64,000 nt of DNA, from assembly GCA_023246095.1 (NCBI GenBank), contig JAHFJA010000002.1, positions 39,489 through 103,488 of the forward strand. Reading direction: 5' to 3'. Position numbers and translations under genes: made by a program. Origin of the DNA: a bacterium. Lineage in GTDB: Bacteria; Patescibacteriota; Patescibacteriia; JACQRZ01. Position 1 is the first letter of the stretch; each line of letters begins with the position of its first letter. Below the pieces are notes generated by a model. That model did no database searches. It worked only from the letters and a program-made list of their open reading frames with translations, and was not told where the DNA came from. Positions 11,469 through 64,000 of the stretch are shown here, piece after piece.

Positions 11469-12053
11469 ATGAAGAACTATCACATGATCCCCACCGTGAT
11501 TGAAAAATCATCAATGGGCGAACGCGCGTATGATATCTATTCCCGCCTTTTGAAAGAGCGCATCATCTTTCTTGGCGATGCGATCGATGACGATGTTGCC
11601 AATACCGTCATTGCTCAGCTGATTTTCCTCGAGAGCGAAGATAAAGAAAAAGACATCAAACTCTATATCAACTCTCCCGGAGGTTCCGTGAGTGCCGGTT
11701 TGGCAATCTACGACACCATGCAATTCATCAAACCGGATGTTTCAACGATCTGTATTGGTATGGCCGCATCTATGGGTGCCGTACTTCTTGCAGCCGGCGC
11801 GAAGAAAAAACGCTATGTTCTCCCTAACGCCGAAGTTATGATCCACCAAGTTATGGGCGGTGCCGAAGGACAAGCAACGGATATCAAAATCAAAGCAGAA
11901 CACATCCTTCGCATTAAAGACAAATTAAACGGCATCCTTTCAAAACACACCGGGCAACCCGTCAAAAAAATCGACACCGACACCGACCGCGACAACTTCA
12001 TGAGCGCCGAAGAGGCAGTGAAATATGGATTGGTGGATAAGATTATACAGTAA
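11469..12053 (+). CDS. clpP: ATP-dependent Clp protease proteolytic subunit
   Basis: Catalytic-Ser motif GMAASMG and catalytic-His context MIHQ; the YINSPGGSV motif. Confidence 0.95.
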
Positions 12054-12074
12054 ACGCTGTTTCATTTTCTACTC

Positions 12075-12106
12075 AAAAAACTGCTCTCAAAAGCAGTTTT
12101 TTGTTT
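12075..12106 (+). terminator. Rho-independent terminator after clpP
   Basis: aaaactgct / agcagtttt stem followed by a T-tract. Confidence 0.6.
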
Positions 12107-12135
12107 ATGTACAAACGTTTTTCAACCATGTATGC

Positions 12136-12164
12136 TTGACAAAAAGAGTAAAATATGCTATTTT
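12136..12164 (+). promoter_or_regulatory. Sigma70-like promoter (TTGACA ... TATTTT) for the 12223 gene
   Basis: TTGACA at 12136-12141; A/T-rich -10 candidates 15-17 nt downstream. Confidence 0.35.
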
Positions 12165-12222
12165 CTTGATTAGAGAGTGACTAAACGTTACTTGAAATTA
12201 TAAAAAACAAAGGAGAATTGGA

Positions 12223-16647: not shown

Positions 16648-17706
16648 CTAACATCCCCAACTATTTGCTTTCAACTTATTATAATTCCCTTCAACCCGAG
16701 GGGCATAAACCCGAGTTTCCTTATACCCGGTGTTAACCTCGCATTCCCACAACGTCGTCCCAGAACAAGACGAACTGAGTCTATTTGCACCTGGCCCGCC
16801 ATTATATGCTGCTGCTAAATACTTAATCTGTGTCATATCACATCCAGATTGTGAATTAGTCGACCCACCATTGCAACCACCCGTTTTCAAGTCGCTCAAG
16901 TAAGCAGCAGCAGTGCGTGCATTGGTAAGTGGGTCAAAACTACTGCCCCCCGTAATATTATGACGGGACCTCACATCCGCCGCAGTGGCGGGCATAAGTT
17001 GAATAAGCCCCTGTGCCCCAACGGAACTTTGCGCGTTGGGGTTACCGCTTGACTCTGCAAACATAAATGCCTTTAAGAGTGTGCAATCAACACCCGGAAA
17101 TTCCGTGCTTGCACTTTTTAAGGCCGTATCGTATGTTGTGAGATTTTGAGATATACTCGCACTACCAACACCTTTCTCACCCCCACCACTACTTTGTTGC
17201 TGACGAATTTCCGCCACAGTAATGTCCATCTTTTGTATTGCCCCCAAACGTATCACTGGCCATTGAACCAGAACCGGATTGATAAGGTACAAGATAGAAT
17301 AAGCACCGAGAGTAAGAACGAGACCAATCAATGCATTCGATATAATTTTTATTGCTTTTTGTGTTTGCCCCGAAGAGCCTCTTGAAGTCATCCACTGCAT
17401 CCCTCCTACCATTAGCATTACCACGGCGATTATAGCCACCGCAGTAATTAACCACGCGTACAATTGTCCAAAATAGGTGGCCATACCTGTTGCCACAATA
17501 GTATTACCATCAGCAGTGATAAGTTTAACCTTTTCATCATACCCGTGAAAAGGAACTTGAAGTTTAAAATCGGGAAACAAACTCGAAGATTTTATAGCAT
17601 CATCAACAGCAAATACGCGATGAGGTGTAGCAATCCCCACAAAAAACAATATAACGATAGCCAACACCCCCACAAGGAAATATCTTACAAAAGACGAATG
17701 ACGCAT
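16648..17706 (-). CDS. Fusion protein: N-terminal TrbC/VirB2-like pilin module joined to a C-terminal SLT-family lytic transglycosylase domain
   Basis: Pilin-type motif MLMVGGMQWMTSRGSSGQTQKAIKIISNALIGLVLTLGAYSIL; SLT motif AESSGNPNAQSSVGAQGLIQLMPATA. Confidence 0.7.
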   Translation of the reverse strand: MRHSSFVRYFLVGVLAIVILFFVGIATPHRVFAVDDAIKSSSLFPDFKLQVPFHGYDEKVKLITADGNTIVATGMATYFGQLYAWLITAVAIIAVVMLMVGGMQWMTSRGSSGQTQKAIKIISNALIGLVLTLGAYSILYLINPVLVQWPVIRLGAIQKMDITVAEIRQQQSSGGGEKGVGSASISQNLTTYDTALKSASTEFPGVDCTLLKAFMFAESSGNPNAQSSVGAQGLIQLMPATAADVRSRHNITGGSSFDPLTNARTAAAYLSDLKTGGCNGGSTNSQSGCDMTQIKYLAAAYNGGPGANRLSSSCSGTTLWECEVNTGYKETRVYAPRVEGNYNKLKANSWGC

Positions 17707-17780: not shown

Positions 17781-17815
17781 GAATATAATATAAAATTTTG
17801 ATAATACAACATTTT

Positions 17816-17891
17816 TGGTGCGCCCAGAGGGATTTGAACCCCCGACCGTTTGCTTAAGAGGCAACTGCTCTACCAACTGAGCTATGAGCGC
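17816..17891 (-). tRNA. tRNA-Lys (anticodon CTT), CCA encoded
   Basis: Manual cloverleaf fold of the reverse complement: GCGCTCA acceptor, GCTC/GAGC D-stem, anticodon loop CTCTTAA, T-loop TTCAAAT, 76 nt. Confidence 0.8.
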
Positions 17892-17951
17892 ATAACAGGG
17901 ACATCCTATCGTCCGACGTGTGAAGTGTCAATTGTCATACAATAACACTTT

Positions 17952-18028
17952 TGGTGCGCCCGGAGGGATTCGAACCCCCGACCCTCTGGTCCGAAGCCAG
18001 ATGCTCTAATCCACTGAGCTACGAGCGC
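17952..18028 (-). tRNA. tRNA-Arg (anticodon TCG), CCA encoded
   Basis: Manual cloverleaf fold: acceptor GCGCTCG/CGGGCGC, anticodon stem TCTGG/CCAGA with loop CTTCGGA, T-loop TTCGAAT, 77 nt. Confidence 0.75.
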
Positions 18029-18086: not shown

Positions 18087-19154
18087 CTATTCTTGAACCT
18101 CGTCTTGTTCTACATGCTTCAATGTTTCTGGGTGCACCATATATGATAAAGCTTCATCATGGCTAATCAATCCTTTTTTATATAAATCTTTCACACTGGT
18201 ATCCATAGTACACATCCCTTTTCCTGCATTTGTTTGTAACACTGTTTCAATCTGCTGCAACTTATTTTCCCGGATTAATGTCGCAACAGCAGGTGTATTA
18301 AGAAGCACTTCACGCACCGCAATACGCTGTTCGTTTTGCGTAACTACTAATCTTTGAGAAACAACTCCTTTAAGTGTCGTTGCAAGCTGCAAGCGAATCT
18401 GTGTTTGTTGGGAAGGAGGAAAAACATCAACAATACGGCTGATAGTTTCGGCGGCACTAAACGTGTGCAAGGTTGCAAACACCAAATGACCCGTTTCTGC
18501 CAATGTGATCGTTGCTGCAATAGTTTCTAAGTCTCGCATTTCCCCGACCATAATAACATTAGGATCTTGGCGTAAAACATACTTCAAACTTTCACTGAAC
18601 GATCGCATATCTTGTCCCAACTGTCGCTGCCGGATAATAGACTTATTGGGAGTAAAAAGAAACTCAATCGGATCTTCAAGAGTTATGATGTTTTCTCCGC
18701 GATTATTATTGATCGCATCAATCATGGAGGCAAGAGTAGTTGATTTACCACACCCTGCCGGACCCGTAATCAAGACAAGACCATTTTTCATGTTGATGAA
18801 ATTTTGTGCCGCCTCAGGAATATGCAAATCATCCATCGTGGGAATATCTACAGGTATAAGACGCGCCACAAGACCAACACTATTTTTTTCCCACATGAGG
18901 TTAATACGAAAACGCCCTACCCCTTCAATCTCGTGTGAAACGTCCAGCTCTTTTCCGTCATCAAAAAACTCTCTCTGCATTGGTGTCAGAACACTATACG
19001 CAAGATCTTGTACCGAACCTGGGGTCAGCACGTCTTGTTCTTCGATTTCTCGCAGACGCCCACCTGCACGAATAATAGGCCGCTTCCCCACATAGAGATG
19101 CAGATCAGAAGCGGCATGTTGTTGTGCGTAGGTAAGTAATTGATTGAGCGTCAT
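18087..19154 (-). CDS. pilT: PilT-family type IV pilus retraction ATPase (likely start at MTLNQLL; ORF extends to 19208)
   Basis: Walker A LITGPAGCGKSTTLASMIDAIN and the N-terminal AASDLHL motif; ~355 aa. Confidence 0.8.
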   Translation of the reverse strand: MTLNQLLTYAQQHAASDLHLYVGKRPIIRAGGRLREIEEQDVLTPGSVQDLAYSVLTPMQREFFDDGKELDVSHEIEGVGRFRINLMWEKNSVGLVARLIPVDIPTMDDLHIPEAAQNFINMKNGLVLITGPAGCGKSTTLASMIDAINNNRGENIITLEDPIEFLFTPNKSIIRQRQLGQDMRSFSESLKYVLRQDPNVIMVGEMRDLETIAATITLAETGHLVFATLHTFSAAETISRIVDVFPPSQQTQIRLQLATTLKGVVSQRLVVTQNEQRIAVREVLLNTPAVATLIRENKLQQIETVLQTNAGKGMCTMDTSVKDLYKKGLISHDEALSYMVHPETLKHVEQDEVQE

Positions 19155-19223
19155 AGACTTGAGTATAATTGGTAGTGATAGCCTGACACGAGGGAAAACG
19201 GTTGTCAATCCGACTACTCGTAC

Positions 19224-52364: not shown

Positions 52365-52730
52365 CTACACATCATTCTTTATATATTGTACTGCCTCGCT
52401 TTTGGTGATTATTTCTTTATTACGAAGAAGTGTTGCAGTGTTAATTTTTATCTCGTTCTTTGTGTCTTCAATCTTATCCATCAAACGGTGCTCCATCTTT
52501 CCCATGTCTGCTCTCAGCAAACCTAAATCCTCTTTTGTAGCAAAATGCTCAATATCTTTCTTTGTGGCAAAATCACGAAGATCATCTTTTGTAGCAAAGT
52601 TTTCAAGGTCTTTCTTTGTCGCCATATTAGCAAATCCCTTTCCCACCATCAGAGCAAAATCGTCAAAACGAGCTTCGAGGGTTGTATTAAGAATCTGTGT
52701 AAATTCTTCTTTTGAAAGTGGGGTGTCCAT
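52365..52730 (-). CDS. Hypothetical protein with four tandem 9-aa repeats (ATKKDLENF / ATKDDLRDF / ATKKDIEHF / ATKEDLGLL)
   Basis: 27-nt periodic DNA repeat visible at ~52530-52640; ORF track. Confidence 0.5.
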   Translation of the reverse strand: MDTPLSKEEFTQILNTTLEARFDDFALMVGKGFANMATKKDLENFATKDDLRDFATKKDIEHFATKEDLGLLRADMGKMEHRLMDKIEDTKNEIKINTATLLRNKEIITKSEAVQYIKNDV

Positions 52731-53617: not shown

Positions 53618-56215
53618 TTAAAAATCTGAACCAATACAATCCTTGTCAAAATATATTCCACCAGGACTAAACAAATTACCATTTTCGTACCTAGCACTAC
53701 ACGTCATATATCGATACATCGATGGAAGACCCGAACCTACTGTTGCTGGGTGCATATCTATTTTTAATATACCGAGATCCATTTCAAGAGCTACTCCAAC
53801 AAATAAGTTTCGACCTACATATGTCTCATTAGCTGAAGACAAATCTCCACCAGAAACAATATCGCCATCAGCAACAATATTACGCCCAACAGTAAGATCT
53901 CGCCCCACATCGGTATCTCTACCTGAATGTAAGCGATCTCCACCTATTTCTCCTGTTACACCAATATTCCCTCCGTGAGTAAGGTCAGTTAAACTACCTA
54001 TTAAAGCTATATCTTTCCCGTTTGCTACATATCCAGCATCAAGAACTGCTTGAAGATCACCAGATCCCCCTGTCCCTGTACCCCCCGGCCAATCTGTTCT
54101 ACAAACACCACCGATACAGACATTTCCCTTGAAATTTGCAAGCCCCTCAAACGTGGCTTGCTCTCTAAACCAAGAAAAATCGTCAACTTGTAGTGCATTT
54201 TGATGCAGCCCTCCAATCATAGGTAGTGCCTCAATTTGTAATCCACCTTGAAGGTTAATTTTATTGTTCGTAACAGCCCCCAGGTCTGTAACTTGTTGCA
54301 ACGTGCCCACTGAACCGCTTCCTGACGGATATGTGATAACGTTTGTAATTGACGTACTATCATTGGTATCTCCAAGATTATCTTTGCCACACCCCCAACC
54401 AGTGCCATTATACTTGAGTACTTGCTGGCTGGAACAGGAAGGCAACTGCATAGGTGATGGCCAACCAATTCTGCAATCTGTTCCTATACAAACCGTTGGT
54501 GCCTTTAATTGCATATTTGACGTAATAGCACCCGTAGCCGTGATTATACCGCCTGATACAATCTGGCCAGTAGTAGTAACGGAACCGGCACTTAGTGTAC
54601 GGATCTGCATATCTTGAGTTGGTGCCTGATTGTTAATAGCAAGAACATCACCAAGACCTTGATTTCCTACCTTAAGAACAAGCCGGTCCGGTGACCAAGT
54701 ACTGATACATGTTGCTCCATTAAGACATATCGAGGGTGTAGTCACCGAGGTTGTTGCAGTAATCGCTCCTGCGGTTAACGCCCCACTACCCGCATTAATA
54801 CCAGCTCCGTTGGTGACAATACCCCCATTGGCCGACAAAAGTCCCGTAAACGTCCCCGTACCTCCGCTAATAGGACCAGTTCCAGCATTAATACCAGCTC
54901 CGTTGGTGACTACACCCCCATTAGCAGTTAAGAGTCCTGTGATAGTGGTGGCGCCTGTAACACCAAGTTTACCTTTTAGTGTCGTATCATTCGATACATC
55001 TAACGTTCCATTGATGGCGGTATTGCCCCCGATAGTCAAACGATTCCCTGCTACAGGCGGTGTTCCGATACCGACCAATCCATTTATTTGAAGATTCCCA
55101 TAACTACCGGAAGGACTCGTCCCGTTTACACTCAATAAATCCCCCGTTGATGCGCCCTCCAGAACACTCACTGCATTAACTCCCGTCCCCACTCCGATCT
55201 GGTACTTTCCTGTTTTGGAAGCAGTACCCGACTGTATCGTCCCATTCACATCAAGTGGTACTGCGGGGTTTGCTCTCCCAATACCCACAAGTCCGTTTAT
55301 CGCAACATTAGTATAAGCATTAGAACCCCCAATTGGCCCGTTGATGTTCAGTAAGCTTCCATCAGCCACGGAAGATTCTATTGCCGACTTACCTCCAATT
55401 TGAAATTTTCCTAGATTATTAGCCGTACTTGATTGCACTGTCCCGTTTACATCAAGCGCTGTCGCGGGACTAACATTCCCGATCCCCATCCTATTATTCA
55501 AAAGCGTAACAAACTTGTTTATAATCCCCCCATTTTTTATGTCCAAATTCCCTGCGGCTTCCATATTTCCGTCAGTGTCGACGCGAAACTTTTTAACAAA
55601 CCCTTTTTCAAACAACAGAAAATTCGGCGTAGTAAGCGGGTTACCTGTAGAGAACGTATTATTATGCACATTTCCAAACAAAAGATTTGTCCCTGCAGCC
55701 AAGATAGGACCCGGGCTAATAGGGCCCAGAGCAACATCAAACACGGTACCCAAAGTTGTCATACCCCCGATAGCGGTTGTCTCATCCCCATCTTGGTCCA
55801 GCACGACCCCGTGTGTCGTAAAGCGTCCCTTGTTCGTCACGTCTTGAAGTGAAGGACTGATGTTCAGCCAATCACTTCGACAATCAGGACTCGAGGCAGG
55901 TCCAAAACAAAGAGTGGAAACAACAAGCCTGCCCCCTGCACTACTTCCCAACACCATATCACCCAAAAATTTGGAAGCATCGGCGCTAATATCAAGAACA
56001 CTTTTTAACCCCCCAGGACCAGCACCCGTATCTGGTTGTCCGTAGGGAGGAAGCTGTACCGGCTCTTTAAACGCTGCCTGTGCAACCTGGTGACCCATGA
56101 ACACGAACAAGGCAACCGCGACCACCAAAAAAGGAAGCAGTACTTTTTTTGTAGTGGCTATCCCCTTCTTCGACTTTAGTTCTGATGATGTTGATATGTT
56201 CTTTATCTCTTTCAT
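53618..56215 (-). CDS. Giant (865 aa) secreted Gly/Thr/Asn-rich repeat protein, beta-helix / fibre-like
   Basis: N-terminal signal/TM LLPFLVVAVALFVFMGHQVAQA; repeated GIGxxxPxxxLDVNGT(V/I)QS units; two ~31-aa tandem repeats NGG(V/I)VTNGAGINAG(T/S)G. Confidence 0.6.
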   Translation of the reverse strand: MKEIKNISTSSELKSKKGIATTKKVLLPFLVVAVALFVFMGHQVAQAAFKEPVQLPPYGQPDTGAGPGGLKSVLDISADASKFLGDMVLGSSAGGRLVVSTLCFGPASSPDCRSDWLNISPSLQDVTNKGRFTTHGVVLDQDGDETTAIGGMTTLGTVFDVALGPISPGPILAAGTNLLFGNVHNNTFSTGNPLTTPNFLLFEKGFVKKFRVDTDGNMEAAGNLDIKNGGIINKFVTLLNNRMGIGNVSPATALDVNGTVQSSTANNLGKFQIGGKSAIESSVADGSLLNINGPIGGSNAYTNVAINGLVGIGRANPAVPLDVNGTIQSGTASKTGKYQIGVGTGVNAVSVLEGASTGDLLSVNGTSPSGSYGNLQINGLVGIGTPPVAGNRLTIGGNTAINGTLDVSNDTTLKGKLGVTGATTITGLLTANGGVVTNGAGINAGTGPISGGTGTFTGLLSANGGIVTNGAGINAGSGALTAGAITATTSVTTPSICLNGATCISTWSPDRLVLKVGNQGLGDVLAINNQAPTQDMQIRTLSAGSVTTTGQIVSGGIITATGAITSNMQLKAPTVCIGTDCRIGWPSPMQLPSCSSQQVLKYNGTGWGCGKDNLGDTNDSTSITNVITYPSGSGSVGTLQQVTDLGAVTNNKINLQGGLQIEALPMIGGLHQNALQVDDFSWFREQATFEGLANFKGNVCIGGVCRTDWPGGTGTGGSGDLQAVLDAGYVANGKDIALIGSLTDLTHGGNIGVTGEIGGDRLHSGRDTDVGRDLTVGRNIVADGDIVSGGDLSSANETYVGRNLFVGVALEMDLGILKIDMHPATVGSGLPSMYRYMTCSARYENGNLFSPGGIYFDKDCIGSDF

Positions 56216-56327: not shown

Positions 56328-57038
56328 TCATCTCAAAACCGATTGATAGTTCTTAAGCAAAAATACTGTTTCGGTTTTGAGATGCGTCTTGACCCACGCT
56401 TTATTTTTTTCATTCAAAAGCTCACCTAATCCTTGCAATATCTGTGCATCTTTCACTTGTTCGACAAGAGAAATACAGTCATCGATGTACTCTTTCAGGC
56501 TTTTTGTCGTCCACTTCGCCAACACCTCTCTGTCAATATCCCAGTTATTTTTTGCAAAGTACCACACATCGTAGATATCACGCATTGCGGTTTCGCTTCG
56601 CAAGGTCAACGCAGCAAGCTTGCTTGCGAATAGATATGGCCTTTTGGCAACGAACATTGAAATCCCCAAATACTCTTTTAGTTCATATTCCTCCTTGAGG
56701 TCAGGCACCACCCTTCTTGTACTTATCTCAATTTTAATATTGTGGTCAGTATCCCCGTAAGAAAGAAGACAAAAGATAGTATTCATTTTTATGTAACTGT
56801 CTTTGATAATGCCATATCGCTCTAAAATCGTTTTAATCCTCTCGAAGATTAATGTATAAGTATCTTGATCGCCACCAATCACATCAAAATCCAAATCAAC
56901 TGAAAATCGTGGCAACTCGTAAAAAAAATATGCACACGTACCCCCTTTAAAACCCAAAAATGGCGCAATTGACACATCAGCATATATGTCTCGCAAAATC
57001 CGTCCCATTATGAGTTGGTGTTTTTCTCTATTCAGCAT
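56328..57038 (-). CDS. abiEii: AbiEii/AbiGii-family nucleotidyltransferase toxin (DUF1814)
   Basis: GFKGGTCAYFFY...RFSVDLDFD motif (GG...S.DLDF of the AbiEii NTase). Confidence 0.75.
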   Translation of the reverse strand: MLNREKHQLIMGRILRDIYADVSIAPFLGFKGGTCAYFFYELPRFSVDLDFDVIGGDQDTYTLIFERIKTILERYGIIKDSYIKMNTIFCLLSYGDTDHNIKIEISTRRVVPDLKEEYELKEYLGISMFVAKRPYLFASKLAALTLRSETAMRDIYDVWYFAKNNWDIDREVLAKWTTKSLKEYIDDCISLVEQVKDAQILQGLGELLNEKNKAWVKTHLKTETVFLLKNYQSVLR

Positions 57039-57642
57039 ATTTTTTTTGATATCTCCTCAATCGTCTGACGAGCTGTTCGTTCCCATATAGCGAGACCAAA
57101 TCAAAACACTTATCCCAATTAACAGGACGAAGATTATCAAAATGGTAGTCGGGAAAAAGATATATCATATCCAAAAATGCTCGCTCTGCCGAGGCAATAC
57201 CATACGTGCCTTTGTTCTCTATCCCCATTCCATTAAACAACACAGTGTCTTTTAATGTTCTAAATATGATAGTTGTCGAATCGATAACCATTGTTTTCGA
57301 CCAGGGGCCGGCAACAAAAATTGCGTCATAATACTGAAACACCATACCTTCTTCTCGAAGCACGGATTCAAAACTGATATATGAAGGAGTATAGATACTC
57401 GTCGCGAGTTCTTTTGAATTATAATTCTTATCTTTTGCAAACACACCACGAGTAAGGCGGATTAAGTCTCCTTGTTTAACATAATATGATATCTTTGATT
57501 TCAGGTTATTTCGATTCGTTTCTCCCCATAATAAAGCTAAATCCTTGCTCGTAAGGATTGTTTTGGGGGACTGGTACAATATAGCAATCAAGTTATCCAT
57601 GACGATATGTTTGATGGAAGTACTATACACTCTTACTTCCAT
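57028..57642 (-). CDS. abiEi: AbiEi-family antitoxin / transcriptional regulator (possible start at 57600)
   Basis: LIRLTRGVF (RG.F/Y) and PSYISFESVL motifs shared with the paralog at 60993; overlaps the toxin start by 11 nt. Confidence 0.65.
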   Translation of the reverse strand: MEVRVYSTSIKHIVMDNLIAILYQSPKTILTSKDLALLWGETNRNNLKSKISYYVKQGDLIRLTRGVFAKDKNYNSKELATSIYTPSYISFESVLREEGMVFQYYDAIFVAGPWSKTMVIDSTTIIFRTLKDTVLFNGMGIENKGTYGIASAERAFLDMIYLFPDYHFDNLRPVNWDKCFDLVSLYGNEQLVRRLRRYQKKYAE

Positions 57643-57811: not shown

Positions 57812-58294
57812 CTATACGTTAAAATGATCCAGATATCCTTTTATGTTTAGGGTCGTTTCGTCAAGTATTATGTTTTCAACAAGGACTTTGAAGACCCACT
57901 GAGTAATCCCCCACGCCGAGAGGATGACGGCCAAACCGAGAAGTGCGTATTTAAGGATGTGTTGTGCTTTTTCTACATTGTCTTTTTCTCCATGCGCGGT
58001 CATCCAAAGAAAGCCTGCATAGAGGATAAGGGAGACGGAGAGAATAGCAAGAAAACCAAGAATGTATTTAAGTACATTTGCTATCAGTGTAATTGGTTCA
58101 AGCTTATTCTGTGGTAAGGTGGTACCTTTAGTGCCCGTAGTATTCTTGAACTCACCTCCTGTGAGTATATCGGACAGAGACACCGCATACGAGGAAATAG
58201 GCATTACGGTCACGACCATACTACCCAAAGTAAAGGTCAGCATACCAATGGCAATAAACGTGCGTGCTTTTTGTATTGATGAAAATATATTCAT
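57812..58294 (-). CDS. TrbC/VirB2-like (T4SS-type) pilin paralog 1
   Basis: N-terminal signal/TM; C-terminal motif LYAGFLWMTAHGEKDNVEKAQHILKYALLGLAVILSAWGI. Confidence 0.7.
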   Translation of the reverse strand: MNIFSSIQKARTFIAIGMLTFTLGSMVVTVMPISSYAVSLSDILTGGEFKNTTGTKGTTLPQNKLEPITLIANVLKYILGFLAILSVSLILYAGFLWMTAHGEKDNVEKAQHILKYALLGLAVILSAWGITQWVFKVLVENIILDETTLNIKGYLDHFNV

Positions 58295-58296
58295 AT

Positions 58297-58779
58297 CTAG
58301 GTACCCGTAACGGCTTTAGCGATTGTTAAAAGAACCCAGTAGGTCAGTCCCTGTGCCGCAATGATAATTACTAAACCAACGACTGCCGTCTGGAGGAGAT
58401 CTTGTGCTTTTTTTACCTTCTCTTTTTCACCCTGTGCCGTCATCCAGAGATATCCTGCATAAAGAGTGAGAATGAGAAATATTATGCCAAGAAACCCAAG
58501 AAATATTTGAATAACACTCCCAATAATCATACCTATTGAGTTGGTAGGTGCACCCGACGTAGCTCCACAGGTCTTCCCCCATGCACCACCCGCCGTTTGG
58601 AGATAATCTAATATTCCTTTGTCAGCACAATCAGAGGTGGTAACAGCAAATCCATTAATACCCGCAAGAGCGAGGGTGAATACCATCGCACTCATGCCAA
58701 TATATCGAACCGCATGACTCATGCGCTCCGCGACGGACTTGGCTAAAATAGTATTTTCTTTTGTTACCTTCTTTTTCAT
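58297..58779 (-). CDS. TrbC/VirB2-like pilin paralog 2
   Basis: Motif LYAGYLWMTAQGEKEKVKKAQDLLQTAVVGLVIIIAAQGL. Confidence 0.7.
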   Translation of the reverse strand: MKKKVTKENTILAKSVAERMSHAVRYIGMSAMVFTLALAGINGFAVTTSDCADKGILDYLQTAGGAWGKTCGATSGAPTNSIGMIIGSVIQIFLGFLGIIFLILTLYAGYLWMTAQGEKEKVKKAQDLLQTAVVGLVIIIAAQGLTYWVLLTIAKAVTGT

Positions 58780-58812: not shown

Positions 58813-59232
58813 TTACTTCACTCCCGTGATGGGTTTAAGGCTTTCCACCACGAAATAGGCAATGGCGTAGGAGGACAAAACGATGATAAGCCCAATCACT
58901 GCCGTCGTGATCATTCCGCGCGCTTTTTCTACCTTTGTCTTATCCCCTTCTGCGGTCATCCACTTGGTGCCGGCATAGAGTAAGATAATCAACAGCACGA
59001 TACCCATTATACCGAGAATCACTTTTATCACTGCGCCAATAATAAGCGGGACTGAGTCGGCGGTTGCCGTCACTTTTGCTGCTGTTTTAGCTTGGTCAAA
59101 TACAGAATTAATGTCATTCTTTGCTGCTATCTGAGTACGGGGAATATTGGTTGTCAGTGTTGTCGTCGCAAACGCACCACTTCCTGCCAACATACTTACC
59201 GAAACAATAATTGCAAAAAAAATCTTTTTCAT
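58813..59232 (-). CDS. TrbC/VirB2-like pilin paralog 3 (start at MKKIFFAII; ORF extends to 59388)
   Basis: Motif LYAGTKWMTAEGDKTKVEKARGMITTAVIGLIIVLSSYAI. Confidence 0.7.
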   Translation of the reverse strand: MKKIFFAIIVSVSMLAGSGAFATTTLTTNIPRTQIAAKNDINSVFDQAKTAAKVTATADSVPLIIGAVIKVILGIMGIVLLIILLYAGTKWMTAEGDKTKVEKARGMITTAVIGLIIVLSSYAIAYFVVESLKPITGVK

Positions 59233-59234
59233 AC

Positions 59235-59672
59235 CTAGTGAGCAGCGGTTATTGGCCCTACTAGTCGAGATAAGACGAAAGCAGTGATCGCGTAAGCAGA
59301 CAGCACAATGATAAGACCCAGTACCGCATGAAATATAAGACCGCGTGCTTTTCCTACCTTTGTCGTATCCCCTTCCGCCACCATCCATAGGATACCGCCA
59401 TACACGACAAGGATCAGAAATACCAAACCAAGAACAGATAAAATGATCTGGATGGAAACACCGATTATTGCGGGAAGTGTTTGTTCATCAAGATTATTAA
59501 AGCCAAAAAAACCTTTGAACCCTTCCGCGCTTTTATTCAAACTATCTAGCGGTGGGGTTGAAAGAGGAACAGCAAATACAGGGATTGGAATCCCTGGCGC
59601 AAAAACAAGAACGCCTGCTATCAGAGTTGATAGCAGGGCGCCGATGCCGACTTTGAAGAAAGTCTTGTTCAT
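59235..59672 (-). CDS. TrbC/VirB2-like pilin paralog 4
   Basis: Motif VYGGILWMVAEGDTTKVGKARGLIFHAVLGLIIVLSAYAI. Confidence 0.7.
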   Translation of the reverse strand: MNKTFFKVGIGALLSTLIAGVLVFAPGIPIPVFAVPLSTPPLDSLNKSAEGFKGFFGFNNLDEQTLPAIIGVSIQIILSVLGLVFLILVVYGGILWMVAEGDTTKVGKARGLIFHAVLGLIIVLSAYAITAFVLSRLVGPITAAH

Positions 59673-59696: not shown

Positions 59697-60113
59697 TTAT
59701 TTAATGATAGTCGCAGGAACACTAAACGCGTATTGTGCAATGCCCCATGCAGAGAGAATAATAACAAGCCCAATAACTCCCTGTATCAACATTTTTTGTG
59801 CGGATTCAACTTGTTCATCTTTACCTCCTGCGGTCATCCATTTGAAACCTGCAATCAAAATGATAATCACGGCGATAATACCGAGAAACCCAAGAACAAA
59901 ATTAATAACCGATACCACTGTCTCGTAGGGGGCAATAGCTGTCGAATCATGACCTGGCAATGGTGCATTTTTTGAATCGTTTAATCCATATCCAGTCGTT
60001 GGGACAACCGGCGCCGCCGCATTCACCATCGACACAGGCAAAAGTCCAAAACCTACCGTCAATACACTCGCGACAAGGAACGTTCGTACTACGTTTTTGA
60101 GAGTTGTTTTCAT
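59697..60113 (-). CDS. TrbC/VirB2-like pilin paralog 5
   Basis: Motif LIAGFKWMTAGGKDEQVESAQKMLIQGVIGLVIILSAWGI. Confidence 0.7.
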   Translation of the reverse strand: MKTTLKNVVRTFLVASVLTVGFGLLPVSMVNAAAPVVPTTGYGLNDSKNAPLPGHDSTAIAPYETVVSVINFVLGFLGIIAVIIILIAGFKWMTAGGKDEQVESAQKMLIQGVIGLVIILSAWGIAQYAFSVPATIIK

Positions 60114-60214: not shown

Positions 60215-60991
60215 TCATAGTGGTGCCTGCGTAATGAACTCACGAAATAGTTCAACTTTCCGAACATCACTCGCATCGAACAAAAAAGGTTGTATGTCTC
60301 GTCCTAGTTCTTTAAAATCCAGTCCAGCCGTTGATTCCAACATTCTCGCGCGGAGCCCTTCCGGATCCCCTACCCCAATCTTTGCCTGAAGATACTCATA
60401 GTTCGGTTTGGTAAACGAGGAAAGGAAGACAATGTCATAAAAATCACGACCTTTCGCGCGCTTGCGATTTATCGCCGCAAACATCTTCTGAGAAAGTAAT
60501 ATGTCAGGAGGGGTAACGAAAATCTCCGAAAATACGTCAAACTTGTTAAGAATTTTCTTGTCTGGTTGATAAGAGACGCCATGAGCCAGACTGTCAACTT
60601 GTATGAGAATCTTTTCTTCCTGATATGGTGACAGTTCATTCACAAATAGTATATCAGGCAACCGCACTCGACACCGATAGGCGTCTTTACCAACAGTATC
60701 GATTTCAACGCGCAAACCTTGCCGCTCCAGTTCAACTTGGATGATGTGCGCAAGCTCTTCAAACTCGCCGTCTTCCAGATTGAAATTATCAAAGTCTAAA
60801 TCTTCCGAAAATCGGGTATTCCCATATATAATTCGTAACGCAGTACCACCCAAGAACGCCAGTTTAGCGGCATGCGGGGAAGCAAAAATAATTTCAAGGA
60901 TCTTATACTGAAGGTACTCTCGAAGAATACCCCGTTTGAATGGACGTAACGACTCCGGATATTGTTGTTCGATTTGCTGCAAGGTCAACAT
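60215..60991 (-). CDS. abiEii: AbiEii/AbiGii-family nucleotidyltransferase toxin (DUF1814)
   Basis: Canonical FLGGTALRIIYGNTRFSEDLDFD motif. Confidence 0.85.
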   Translation of the reverse strand: MLTLQQIEQQYPESLRPFKRGILREYLQYKILEIIFASPHAAKLAFLGGTALRIIYGNTRFSEDLDFDNFNLEDGEFEELAHIIQVELERQGLRVEIDTVGKDAYRCRVRLPDILFVNELSPYQEEKILIQVDSLAHGVSYQPDKKILNKFDVFSEIFVTPPDILLSQKMFAAINRKRAKGRDFYDIVFLSSFTKPNYEYLQAKIGVGDPEGLRARMLESTAGLDFKELGRDIQPFLFDASDVRKVELFREFITQAPL

Positions 60992-60992
60992 A

Positions 60993-61613
60993 TCATTTTG
61001 ATTGTTTAATCAACGAGATAAGATCTTCTGTTCTCCTTAGAAACCCCCTACTTGTATACACCATGGCATATTTCCGAAATTTTTTTATGTCGGCTTTTTC
61101 TAAAAACTCTTCACTATTGAACCTCCATTCGTAAAAATCTTCAGGCTTAATAATATTTGGGTGGAGATATACATAATCGAGCACTGCTTTTTCAATCTCC
61201 GCAATTTTGTACGTATATCCATTCTTTGTTTCCAGTCGATACCCAAAAAAATACTCCGCTTTAATTTGTTGGTATGAAAATTCCGTAACCGGTGACTTAA
61301 AACTGGCCGTCTTCTTACTGGACGCCGAGGTAATCGAATATACCCCCTCCGGAATCAAACCATAATACGACAACGCCATTTCAAAAGATACGTACGATGG
61401 CGGGTATAACCGATTTGCAATCAAAAACAATACCTCTTCGCTCAAAGGAAGATCGGCAAACATGTAATAACCACGACGCAGCTTCTTGATATATCCCTTA
61501 TTTTGCCACTCATTAAGCTGATGACGATAAAAAGTTGGATCGATCTTGCGAATATCCACCAAGGAAAAAACAGCAAAGTCTTTCAACTCTCCTTGTAATT
61601 GTTGGTACTTCAT
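60993..61613 (-). CDS. abiEi: AbiEi-family antitoxin (start at MKYQQLQ; ORF extends to 61679)
   Basis: KKLRRGYYMF and PSYVSFEMALSYYGLIP motifs; 1-nt gap to the downstream toxin. Confidence 0.7.
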   Translation of the reverse strand: MKYQQLQGELKDFAVFSLVDIRKIDPTFYRHQLNEWQNKGYIKKLRRGYYMFADLPLSEEVLFLIANRLYPPSYVSFEMALSYYGLIPEGVYSITSASSKKTASFKSPVTEFSYQQIKAEYFFGYRLETKNGYTYKIAEIEKAVLDYVYLHPNIIKPEDFYEWRFNSEEFLEKADIKKFRKYAMVYTSRGFLRRTEDLISLIKQSK

Positions 61614-61711
61614 AGATTTCCGAAACGTACTATATTTAGTACTCTTTGGAATTATAACAACAGAGAAAGAATCGCGCAAACGATATCATGTCTACACATC
61701 GGTGTGTTACT

Positions 61712-62068
61712 TTATTTCCCCAACAAAGCAGTGAGGAGGAATCTGACGATTGCGGCGCTGGCGAAGATGACCGCCATACCGATTGCGGCCCATATCATGG
61801 TATCCATGCCTTTTGTTACTTTTCCTTTATCCCCTGCCGAGGTCATCCAGAGAATACCGCCATAAACAAAGACCACCAGTGCGATTGAGCCGGACAGGCC
61901 GAGAAATGCATTGATAACCAAGCCAATAAATTCCGCGGGGCTATTCACTGCGAGAGGGTTTTCAAGAGTCACGTTACCAGCAGCGGCGTATGCGAAGTGA
62001 GTGGTAAGGAGGGTGATGCCGGCTATCGCTGTTGATAGGGTGACGGTACTATTTTTGGGGAGGGGCAT
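61712..62068 (-). CDS. TrbC/VirB2-like pilin paralog 6 (short, 118 aa)
   Basis: Motif VYGGILWMTSAGDKGKVTKGMDTMIWAAIGMAVIFASAAI. Confidence 0.7.
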   Translation of the reverse strand: MPLPKNSTVTLSTAIAGITLLTTHFAYAAAGNVTLENPLAVNSPAEFIGLVINAFLGLSGSIALVVFVYGGILWMTSAGDKGKVTKGMDTMIWAAIGMAVIFASAAIVRFLLTALLGK

Positions 62069-62086: not shown

Positions 62087-63418
62087 TTAATAGATTATTG
62101 CGTTGGGACAGTCTACTTTCCATCTTTCATCCATGCCAATAAATTCTGTGGTTCCACAGGATGTCGCATTAGGACAGTAGAACTTATTATGAATTGTTAC
62201 GTCCAAAAACGCCTTATTTTGACAGTCAGTAGATGAGATAGACTCGCTGGTATGAAATGCAGTCCCTGATCCATTGGTATTATACGATACACAGCATACC
62301 CCATTTGAAATAACTACAGGAGCGCCACATTTCCCTGCGGTACACTGTCCTGTCTTACATTGTGCAGGGTCTGTACATGCTTCATTATCGTTCTTTTTTA
62401 ACTCACAAGTACCATTCGCAGGGTCGTTTGGGTTAGTACAGTACTGAGTCCCCGCACATTGCGCTTGCATTGGTGGAACCTCACATTTTTGACCCGTTAA
62501 TTTTATCGGCAACACACAGCAACACTTGTTTCCTGTAATAAGATATGACGATACAAACACTCGATTCTTGTTTGTCTGATTACTCGCGACCGCGTCACAA
62601 ACAGCGCTTCCAAAACCACAATCACTGTTAGCTATAAAATGATCCGTACTAGTACAAGACTCATCTTTACAATGATAGCAATACGGTGCTGCGCCCACCC
62701 CTGTACTAAACTCAAATTTTCCCGCACCACACATTTGCAATGCTTTGGCCGAGGCCTCGGCGTACGTTACATAACAGCCACCCTGACTTTGCGCTTGAGT
62801 TTGAGCTAGTTGTATCTCCGGCACCACCCCAATCGTTCCAAAGTGTATCGGCGTACAAATATCTGCTTGATATGACCATTTGCTAGTACCATTAAAAATT
62901 CCTCCCAGACGACCTGCAAGTGTCTTGTCGCCCGTTTCTTTTTTAATCAAACTAGTCATAACAAAGTTTACCGCCATCCAGCTGGTAAACACAATCACGA
63001 GCCCAATCGCGGCGTTGACCATCGTCTCTGTCCCTTTTGTCACTTTCCCTTTATCCCCCGCCGAAGTTAAATACTGAAAGCCCCCCAACACCACCATCAA
63101 AAGCGCGACACTGCCGCTTATGCCCAGAATAAACGTTGCGATATTGATAGCAAGCTGAATAAACGCATCCAAGGTATAATTACAACACAACATATCGCAC
63201 ATCGGGATGATCTTGCTTATAAGCTCACCTGATTGCGGTGCACACATTGCCGGTCCCCCTGCACATCCCCCAGGAACAAACGACGCTGTTGATTTACCCG
63301 CCAATGTCGAATCTGCCCACACCAGCGTAGCAGTAGCGCCGATGCTGGCGATAACCATAACGCCAAAAAGAAATGACAGTATGGCGAGGCGGTATTTTTT
63401 TGGATGACGAAGTTTCAT
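62087..63418 (-). CDS. TrbC/VirB2-like pilin module fused to a ~300-aa Cys-rich C-terminal ectodomain
   Basis: Motif LGGFQYLTSAGDKGKVTKGTETMVNAAIGLVIVFTSWMAV, followed by a domain with >35 Cys (CCCVLP, CTAGKCG, CCVSY and others). Confidence 0.65.
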   Translation of the reverse strand: MKLRHPKKYRLAILSFLFGVMVIASIGATATLVWADSTLAGKSTASFVPGGCAGGPAMCAPQSGELISKIIPMCDMLCCNYTLDAFIQLAINIATFILGISGSVALLMVVLGGFQYLTSAGDKGKVTKGTETMVNAAIGLVIVFTSWMAVNFVMTSLIKKETGDKTLAGRLGGIFNGTSKWSYQADICTPIHFGTIGVVPEIQLAQTQAQSQGGCYVTYAEASAKALQMCGAGKFEFSTGVGAAPYCYHCKDESCTSTDHFIANSDCGFGSAVCDAVASNQTNKNRVFVSSYLITGNKCCCVLPIKLTGQKCEVPPMQAQCAGTQYCTNPNDPANGTCELKKNDNEACTDPAQCKTGQCTAGKCGAPVVISNGVCCVSYNTNGSGTAFHTSESISSTDCQNKAFLDVTIHNKFYCPNATSCGTTEFIGMDERWKVDCPNAIIY

Positions 63419-64000
63419 TGCGAGTAGCTTTGAGAGATAGTCTGCTGGGCTCTATAGATGAGACCTGACATAACACTACGCTCGTCTGAGATATCTCCCC
63501 CTTTACTAGTCAACGCCGTGTCGATCATATCCAAAAACGCTTTTTCTGCTGACGACGCATCGAGGCCATGATACCAGTTATCCGCGATGAGAAGTTGCGA
63601 TGCAAACGGCCGTGTCACGTCATTTTTTAACTGTTCATCAATCATCGCGCGGAGCGCAGTCGGTGCTTGAGTTTTTTCCAAATAGGATTTTACATTCTCC
63701 TGTGCTGTGGCAAACATGATAAAATCCCATGCCATGTCTTGATATTTTGATTTATTGGATACTCCCTCTGCCCAGTAATTGGCGTATGTTTTCTTAAGTT
63801 CTGGTTGTTTTTGCGGTAACGGAGCGACTTCAAACTGCAAACCCGGTGCTTTGGTCTTGATTTGGGCTATGTGATACGAATACCCGAACATCATCGCAGC
63901 ACGTTCTTGGGAAAAACTCTCTACACTGTTTGGTTGGTCTTGATTCCATGTATACACATCTGCTTTGGTTACCCACGCAAAATCAGTATAGAAACGCAGT
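63415..64000 (-). CDS. 3' portion of a gene running off the window end; C-terminal region resembles an ABC-transporter extracellular solute-binding protein
   Basis: Reading frame open to the window edge; an AMMFGYSYHIAQIKT-type segment; identification weak. Confidence 0.3.
   Translation of the reverse strand, partial: LRFYTDFAWVTKADVYTWNQDQPNSVESFSQERAAMMFGYSYHIAQIKTKAPGLQFEVAPLPQKQPELKKTYANYWAEGVSNKSKYQDMAWDFIMFATAQENVKSYLEKTQAPTALRAMIDEQLKNDVTRPFASQLLIADNWYHGLDASSAEKAFLDMIDTALTSKGGDISDERSVMSGLIYRAQQTISQSYSQ

Follow-up and report, generated by a model that had tools for sequence, protein, structure and literature searches.

What is a pilin hairpin doing at the front of a protein whose other half is a large cysteine-rich domain, and what might that domain be for? 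The question is raised by a gene on the minus strand (62087..63418) of a 64,000-nucleotide stretch of patescibacterial DNA (GCA_023246095.1, contig JAHFJA010000002.1), which we call the window. The gene encodes 443 amino acids plus a stop codon, a VirB2-like pilin module followed by a Cys-rich ectodomain. An earlier note, made from the letters alone, proposed a tip adhesin or receptor-binding minor pilin. Our own reading is close to this and tentative: the product is possibly a bimodular VirB2-like minor pilin presenting a binding domain that varies. The architecture, the predicted location outside the cell, the even number of cysteines, the ordered C-terminal 139 residues and the variability of the ectodomain partly support the earlier proposal; no binding fold was matched. 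That the protein is the host-binding (specificity) subunit of the pilin array in which it lies is plausible but unproven.

A fusion of this kind could arise if an assembly error or a frameshift had run a pilin gene and an unrelated gene together, an eventuality that the earlier note had itself raised. The gene is a single uninterrupted open reading frame (ORF), and the identical 443-residue product is found in the NCBI and ENA records as well as in a Logan assembly made independently from run SRR14366756. The same single-ORF architecture recurs in at least seven other loci (L002/L011, L003, L004, L006, L007, L008/L009 and L010). The junction of hairpin and extension is also kept, with W181 and C188 nearly invariant in a 26-member family alignment (A2). 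Three assemblies, the orthologous loci and the conserved junction all speak for an intact gene and we found no point in favour of an artefact, which we therefore reject, leaving it only a vanishingly small probability.

The protein begins with a putative signal peptide or leader (residues 1-35, 63314..63418), marked in a hydropathy scan by a basic n-region (MKLRHPKKYR) and a hydrophobic core, and modelled by AlphaFold2 as a helix over residues 7-38. An AXA-like motif suggests cleavage between LVWA and DS, and the N-terminus is conserved in the orthologues P0002, P0004 and L011. There follows an extracytoplasmic N-segment (residues 36-88, 63155..63313) with five cysteines (52, 59, 74, 78 and 79) and a conserved IIPxC...CNYTLDAF motif; C59, C74 and C79 never vary in subfamily alignment A3, and C74 is nearly invariant in alignment A2. 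The pilin hairpin itself (residues 89-157, 62948..63154) consists of a first transmembrane helix, the loop TSAGDKGKVTKGTET, which carries three lysines, and a second transmembrane helix, with no cysteine in it.

Residues 89-153 match the Pfam family PF18895 (T4SS_pilin) at 42.9 bits (E 5e-11, cut-off 26.6), nearly the score of the adjoining plain pilin 2 (43.1 bits). AlphaFold2, given a 26-sequence alignment, places the hairpin helices at residues 83-118 and 123-158 with a predicted local distance difference test (pLDDT) score of ~80, and hydropathy peaks fall at residues 11-34, 91-114 and 136-154. The two-helix pilin module that the earlier note had put at residues ~95-150 is thus confirmed. 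The fusion protein has no match to PF04956 (TrbC/VirB2) at E <= 0.1, and NCBIfam yields only sub-threshold matches, to the Mbov_0395 pilin-like conjugal transfer family. Type IV pilus pilin families are missing from the Pfam and NCBIfam scans of the fusion, as are a class III signal peptide and an alpha-1 helix from the protein. Because of the PF18895 match, and because the neighbouring pilin 2 passes the PF04956 threshold, we classify the module from its sequence as a VirB2/TrbC-like type IV secretion pilin and not as a type IV pilus pilin. Members of PF18895 are typically single-module proteins of ~100-190 residues; the fusion departs from this with its 443 residues, 285 of them beyond the hairpin.

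We divided this ectodomain, by eye and by alignment, into modules A to D. Juxtamembrane segment A (residues 158-205, 62804..62947) contains the near-invariant W181 and C188 (alignments A2 and A3), and its W...C tail is also found in short pilins with exactly one other mature cysteine. The middle Cys-rich region (residues 206-304, 62507..62803), modelled at pLDDT 33-55, includes module B (C267, C274 ... CCC 299-301), whose pattern C-x-C...CCC is common to the members of alignment A1. Module C (residues 305-368, 62315..62506) has eight cysteines spaced C-x8-C-x5-C-x10-C-x9-C-x5-C-x4-C-x4-C and is weakly Dickkopf/colipase-like. Module D (residues 369-443, 62090..62314) is a small beta-sheet/helix domain with six cysteines, G-V-CC ... 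C ... FYC ... CG ... W ... C, a version of the six-cysteine family pattern G-x-CC ... C ... FC ... CG ... W ... C.

Structure prediction, advised in the earlier note, gave modules C and D (residues 305-443; 21-sequence alignment) a mean pLDDT of 88.4, every residue reaching 50 or more, so that the ectodomain is, by this model, ordered at least over its last 139 residues. The knottin, EGF or lectin-like fold that had been envisaged found no significant match in the fold search. Foldseek against the PDB returned only helical-hairpin noise (E > 1) for the full-length model and nothing below E 0.9 for the confident model of C and D, and module D has no confident known fold. The structural scores of module C against Dickkopf and colipase are below the usual significance level; it has eight cysteines against ten, and no Pfam match. 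A Pfam scan of 26 family members for a named ectodomain gave none, only marginal single matches to Dumpy_DPY and DUF7107. Likeness to VirB5/TraC was not seen either: Pfam and NCBIfam give pilin matches only, and no VirB5 structure is among the fold matches.

The distribution of cysteines fits the predicted topology closely. The protein has 30, an even number, with five before the hairpin, none inside it and 25 after it; the leader, helices and loop together (~125 residues) have none, and all 30 lie in the two segments predicted to be outside. This supports the extracellular placement of the Cys-rich domain first proposed, and it corrects the count of more than 35 cysteines given with it. The Cys-rich motifs quoted at that time are all present: CCCVLP (residues 299-304), CEVPPMQAQCAGTQYC (312-327), CTAGKCGAPV (359-368) and CCVSY (375-379). 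Cysteine makes up 8.7% of the C-terminal part (25 of 288 residues) as against 0.59% in the 33 other ORFs of the window (16,016 residues; binomial P ~3e-21). The extension had also been described as rich in Gly, Thr and Asn; Gly and Thr are indeed among its commonest residues, the third being Ala. No further hydrophobic helix follows, as had been stated, the highest 19-residue Kyte-Doolittle mean beyond residue 160 being 1.0. Whether or not the leader is cleaved, the N-segment would be outside, the loop TSAGDKGKVTKGTET inside and the C-terminal part outside, where up to 15 disulfides may stabilize the ectodomain.

Both outside segments have an odd number of cysteines (5 and 25), so that all of them can be paired only if one disulfide or more links the N-segment to the C-terminal part. 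The likely position of such a link is suggested by short PF18895 relatives. Four of them (P0092, P0041, P0047 and P0111) have exactly two mature cysteines, one ~15 residues ahead of the first helix and the other past the conserved C-tail Trp. From these two-Cys relatives we infer that a disulfide probably clamps the two outer ends of the hairpin, C74-C188 in the fusion protein. We had also considered, as evidence for the clamp, that N-segment cysteines might be exclusive to fused proteins. This was ruled out because most plain pilins have them, and the clamp accordingly depends on the short relatives. The two-Cys clamp of PF18895 recalls the head-to-tail cyclisation reported for P-type pilins.

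The fusion belongs to a family. An exhaustive search of 1.84 billion representatives gave 13,577 proteins (E <= 0.001), the majority of them plain pilins, and our family counts cover the 151 closest pilin representatives, that is, the query and the best 150 of the 13,577. Thirty of the 151 continue for 80 residues or more beyond their last pilin module, and 29 of those have at least eight cysteines there. A Cys-rich C-terminal extension thus recurs in this family, being present in at least 29 of its 151 closest representatives. When the ectodomain was run by itself, or as a 10-sequence profile, through a word-indexed homology search, nothing but the protein itself and P0137 came back, and a scan of a genome collection with the single protein gave no match; with the subfamily alignment as query, the scan did recover relatives. 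An ectodomain profile built from five distant members (P0017, P0053, P0019, P0012 and P0137), with the query excluded, scores the query ectodomain at 36.7 bits, and the best of 2000 composition-preserving shuffles at 3.6 bits. Relatives combine the modules as B+C+D, B+C, D alone, D twice or B alone, or carry other Cys-rich domains. As a separate observation, P0009, P0013, P0036 and others have 5-8 tandem pilin modules per polypeptide, reaching 820 residues, and some such polypeptides end in a Cys-rich tail (P0013 has six modules and then 230 residues with 20 cysteines); these may be genuine fused arrays or products of faulty gene calling.

Comparison of the genes at the window's locus with those of genomes L006 and L002 shows how unevenly the fused gene has changed. 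Identities in L006 and L002, respectively, are 77% and 76% for a presenilin-type protease, 80% and 82% for a solute-binding protein, 76% and 80% for plain pilin 2, and 81% and 75% for the hairpin of the fused gene. They drop to 58% and 57% in the juxtamembrane segment. The ectodomain is 40% identical in L006, where module D is missing and the complete ORF stops after module C, and has no detectable similarity in L002. The hypervariability between related genomes that the earlier note had suggested looking for is therefore present: neighbouring genes are 76-82% identical and the ectodomain is 40% identical or unrelated. Additionally, the closest hairpins (P0003-P0006, 59-67% identical) bear ectodomains unrelated to that of the query (<=3.9 bits), whereas proteins with homologous ectodomains have hairpins only 42-53% identical to the query's. 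Because the closest hairpins bear unrelated ectodomains and remoter hairpins homologous ones, the sequence histories of the two parts are discordant, which indicates that ectodomain cassettes have been exchanged on a conserved pilin module. Diversification of the kind driven by diversity-generating retroelements was considered and rejected: the window holds no template repeat involving 62087-63418, and there is no reverse transcriptase among the ORFs scanned.

The fused gene is one of seven PF18895 genes between 57812 and 63418. The others, likewise on the minus strand, are plain pilin 2 (61712..62068, 118 residues; PF18895 43.1 bits, PF04956 TrbC/VirB2 32.2 bits at a cut-off of 27.9), pilin 3 (59697..60113, 138 residues; PF18895 39.2 bits), pilin 4 (59235..59672, 145 residues; 25 bits, slightly under the cut-off), pilin 5 (58813..59232, 139 residues; 32.6 bits), pilin 6 (58297..58779, 160 residues; 27.9 bits) and pilin 7 (57812..58294, 160 residues; 33.8 bits). 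For pilin 5 a mechanical ORF of 191 residues (58813-59388, minus strand) overlaps pilin 4 by 154 nucleotides; the likely start is the ATG at 59232, in line with an ENA gene call of 139 residues. The earlier description of the fusion as the last gene of the array is correct only when positions are counted along the plus strand; in the direction of transcription the fusion comes first among the seven. Its start codon overlaps, as ATGA (...CAATGA...), with the stop codon of the solute-binding-protein gene upstream, and the 3' part of that gene lies in the window (63415..64000, minus strand; PF13416 and PF01547), the complete gene having 484 codons for amino acids in L001.

This arrangement is conserved. 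Eight loci share the order presenilin/SPP-family intramembrane protease, solute-binding protein (420-490 residues), fused pilin, and the fusion is the first pilin gene in every one of them. The protease and solute-binding-protein genes precede the fusion in L001 (L001:305-2657, upstream of the window's end) and also in L002, L003, L004, L006, L007, L008 and L010. The protease lies two genes upstream of the fusion in 7 of the 8 loci, L011 beginning at the fusion gene and so being unable to show it. The solute-binding-protein gene adjoins or overlaps the fusion in 7 of 8, with two small ORFs in between in L010. Five to seven plain pilins come after the fusion wherever the contig continues; in L010 it ends right after the fusion. 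In the window's genome the protease (PF06550) has intact YD, GGGD and PAL motifs, and it may clear or process pilin leader peptides. The solute-binding protein has its own N-terminal membrane anchor, and no ABC permease or ATPase gene adjoins its gene in the flanks read at the loci. Among named organisms, the closest relative of the cluster is in a Candidatus Uhrbacteria metagenome-assembled genome (L004), and a close relative, L011, comes from Hainich groundwater. These relatives and the PF18895 array point to a patescibacterial origin.

These features would be accommodated by the following mechanism. A Sec-type leader would place the N-segment outside the cell; the hairpin would then dip into the membrane, with its Lys-rich loop cytoplasmic (luminal once in a pilus), and the chain would re-emerge outside. 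There the C-terminal part of ~285 residues would fold with up to 15 disulfides, N-segment C74 probably being clamped to tail C188. The ectodomain would be a string of small Cys-scaffold modules (A-D) that are shuffled, lost or replaced among relatives while the hairpin stays conserved like that of an ordinary pilin. Such a hairpin would permit co-assembly with the plain pilins, and outward-facing termini would let the ectodomain project from the fibre surface. Ectodomain-bearing subunits would be few in number and most simply sit at the distal end, which is made first, where the ectodomain could act as a variable element for recognizing a host or partner.

Geometry agrees with a scarce or terminal subunit. 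In the solved T-pilus, VirB2 is U-shaped with both termini outward and its basic loop luminal, and the fibre has an outer diameter of 76 A, a rise of 13.4 A and 5 subunits per layer (bioRxiv 10.1101/2022.09.25.509369). A C-terminal ectodomain is, given these outward termini, topologically compatible with a VirB2-type fibre. From the published dimensions we calculate ~640 A2 of outer surface per subunit; a 30 kDa globule has an estimated cross-section of ~1300 A2 at standard protein density. A domain of this size could not be borne by every subunit and must be rare or terminal.

The chief rival is that the protein never enters a filament. The hairpin would then be a two-helix membrane anchor or a tag for localization to a type IV secretion system (T4SS), and the Cys-rich domain a surface adhesin, receptor or wall factor. 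We consider this unlikely on balance, although it is the main rival to a minor pilin. It draws on a second pilin-module fusion in the window (16648-17706, minus strand), in which a PF18895 hairpin (residues 77-140) is joined to an SLT lytic transglycosylase (residues 204-309). This enzyme must act on the cell's own wall, and its hairpin looks like a plain membrane anchor. The single polypeptides with 5-8 pilin modules suggest in-membrane assemblies, and a search of the window and of 10 kb beyond one end turned up no T4SS machine gene. Yet the hairpin of the fusion is as conserved as a plain pilin (75-81% versus 76-80%) and scores as well in PF18895, where a mere anchor would be expected to drift, and the gene is always linked to a plain-pilin array. 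A hairpin conserved like that of a true pilin, the linked plain pilins and the first position in the array are why we favour a minor, domain-presenting pilin. Several points besides the transglycosylase fusion nevertheless count against that preference. No VirB3, VirB4, VirB6 or VirD4 is encoded by the ORFs scanned in the 64-kb window or in the 10 kb beyond its low end. A PDB sequence search with a profile of 26 plain pilins reached no solved VirB2/TraA structure and gave only noise, as did a search with the full-length fusion, so that kinship with the classical pilins stands on the Pfam models and the fibre geometry is borrowed from distant relatives. Residues 194-315 are poorly modelled, at low confidence, in the full-length AlphaFold2 prediction, every fold match is below significance, and no binding fold was identified. 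The accessible literature sources contain no demonstrated PF18895 fibre, and a 2025 review names just the potential to elaborate conjugative pili (PMC12857230).

The genes upstream allow two further explanations. The orphan solute-binding protein and the fused pilin could form a nutrient-capture assembly on a pilin scaffold, with the Cys-rich domain docking the binding protein, comparable in idea to the archaeal bindosome. Their genes adjoin or overlap in 7 of 8 loci and no ABC permease or ATPase gene adjoins in the flanks read. We nevertheless judge it improbable: the binding protein has an anchor of its own, exchange of the ectodomain alongside a binding protein that keeps 80-82% identity is a poor fit with a conserved partner interface, and we know of no experimental precedent for a nutrient-capture pilin assembly in bacteria. 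Slightly less probable still is a pro-protein whose Cys-rich domain is released as a soluble toxin, signal or effector, possibly through cleavage at the type II-oriented second helix by the presenilin-type protease. The protease, with intact YD, GxGD and PAL motifs, is encoded two genes upstream in 7 of 8 loci, and module C weakly resembles small secreted disulfide-rich proteins. Such cleavage is pure supposition, however; the protease may just clear the many pilin leader peptides, and the putative clamp between N-segment and tail would retain the domain.

Other features of the window bear on its setting. The window is chromosomal, with rpoB, rpoC, ileS, ruvA, recA, ftsK, infB, a murE-type ligase and femAB-type genes, and the one FtsK/HerA-type ATPase that it encodes is an ordinary FtsK, which has the alpha and gamma domains. 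Neighbours of the pilin::SLT gene are two tRNA-like repeats (17794-18008), a PilT-family ATPase (18087-19208) and a SpoIID-domain protein. The ATPase was considered as a VirB11 and ruled out, being a type IV pilus ATPase of the PilT family (TIGR01420 424.6 bits, cut-off 319.1; VirB11 40.7 bits). Three tandem 27-nucleotide units (52527-52627, 70-81% identical) lie within a 121-residue ORF (52365-52730) that has no family match.

Within the array, an AbiEi-like/AbiEii (PF08843) toxin-antitoxin pair is inserted between pilins 2 and 3 (60215-61679, minus strand), and a second lies between pilin 7 and a gene for a large Gly-rich protein (56328-57642, minus strand). The pairs are absent from the arrays of L003 and L004, and L002 has a different insert of 275 residues at that position (L002:12193-13020); the array looks like a hotspot for insertions. 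In L002 the pilin 2 orthologue (11658-12176) has a Cys-rich N-terminal insertion, YCSCKTGNTT...CSKTCGP, making it 172 residues long versus 118 in the window (61712-62068), and thus the outer N-segments of plain pilins vary too. The metagenome-assembled genome L002 (CAYHKW010000011.1) is titled 'uncultured Gammaproteobacteria bacterium' yet carries the cluster at 76-82% protein identity to the window, and the label or binning is probably wrong. The Gly-rich protein (53618-56215, minus strand), a secreted product of 865 residues encoded downstream of the array, has no Pfam or NCBIfam match. Its N-terminal 160 residues are 48% identical to a protein after the array in L003 (7769-9265), and it shares a C...QVLK...G.WGCG.DN.G motif with L004:17476-19389, the C-terminal parts differing. 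It could represent another variable surface protein encoded by the cluster.

Taken further, the cluster could specify an undescribed, self-contained surface organelle made of the protease, the orphan solute-binding protein, the bimodular pilin, the pilin array and the Gly-rich protein. Its VirB2-type fibre would carry a covalent, cassette-swappable recognition domain in place of missing VirB5/PrgB adhesins, the disulfide between N-segment and tail would do the job of P-type cyclisation, and the protease would mature the pilins or clear their leaders. We offer this full picture as speculation and think it rather unlikely to hold in its entirety.

Nothing sets the T4SS of Patescibacteria apart more than its VirB2-like pilin arrays, and in Southlakia epibionticum, the only genetically tractable species, the pilin array is essential for epibiotic growth (PMC10633639, Wang et al. 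2023). A pilin whose disulfide-rich outer domain is exchanged rapidly makes a concrete candidate for the missing binding or host-range determinant. Its ectodomain offers a soluble target of 140-285 residues that could be expressed for binding tests, and the conserved association with the genes for a presenilin-type protease and an orphan solute-binding protein defines a cluster for which other genomes can be screened. Even if the protein is not incorporated into a fibre, the pilin hairpin is reused here as a carrier of extracellular domains, as the lytic-transglycosylase fusion in the window also supports.

How, then, does the locus compare with known systems? Known VirB2/TraA/TrbC pilins have 70-120 residues and no extra domain, and their tip adhesin is a separate protein, VirB5. 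The fusion shares with this family (PF04956) the U-shaped hairpin, the basic loop and termini that would face the fibre exterior, and the neighbouring plain pilin 2 passes the family threshold; unlike them, the fusion itself has no PF04956 match and no sequence link to the solved pilins. The three lysines of its loop resemble the luminal loops of VirB2/TraA (bioRxiv 10.1101/2022.09.25.509369). Among Patescibacteria, VirB2-like arrays of 2-11 genes occur in 383 assemblies, and a pilin gene lies near virB4 in 1135 of 1948; PrgB-like adhesins were not detected in the Patescibacteria dataset of that survey (PMC12102498, Quinonero-Coronel et al. 2025). Our array is like these in its Pfam family (PF18895), in the leader and two-helix hairpin, in being a tandem divergent array of a size (seven genes) within the reported range, and in its interruption by non-pilin genes. 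It differs in that it is not beside virB4 within the sequence examined, that it clusters with a presenilin-type protease and a solute-binding protein, and that it includes a 443-residue member with a 285-residue Cys-rich ectodomain, where the literature read has small pilins only. A pilin with a C-terminal Cys-rich domain is not mentioned in the literature searched, which is not proof of its absence from the literature. Set against the Dickkopf cysteine-rich domain, colipase and knottin-like mini-proteins, module C stands in a bacterial context. The nearest counterpart in design is found among modular type IV pilins such as PilB of Streptococcus sanguinis, a minor subunit with an adhesive module on its pilin C-terminus (Raynaud et al. 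2021, PMC8179133). PilB belongs to an unrelated filament superfamily, with a class III signal peptide and a single N-terminal helix. The likeness, a pilin module with a functional graft at its C-terminus, is therefore one of analogy and not of homology.

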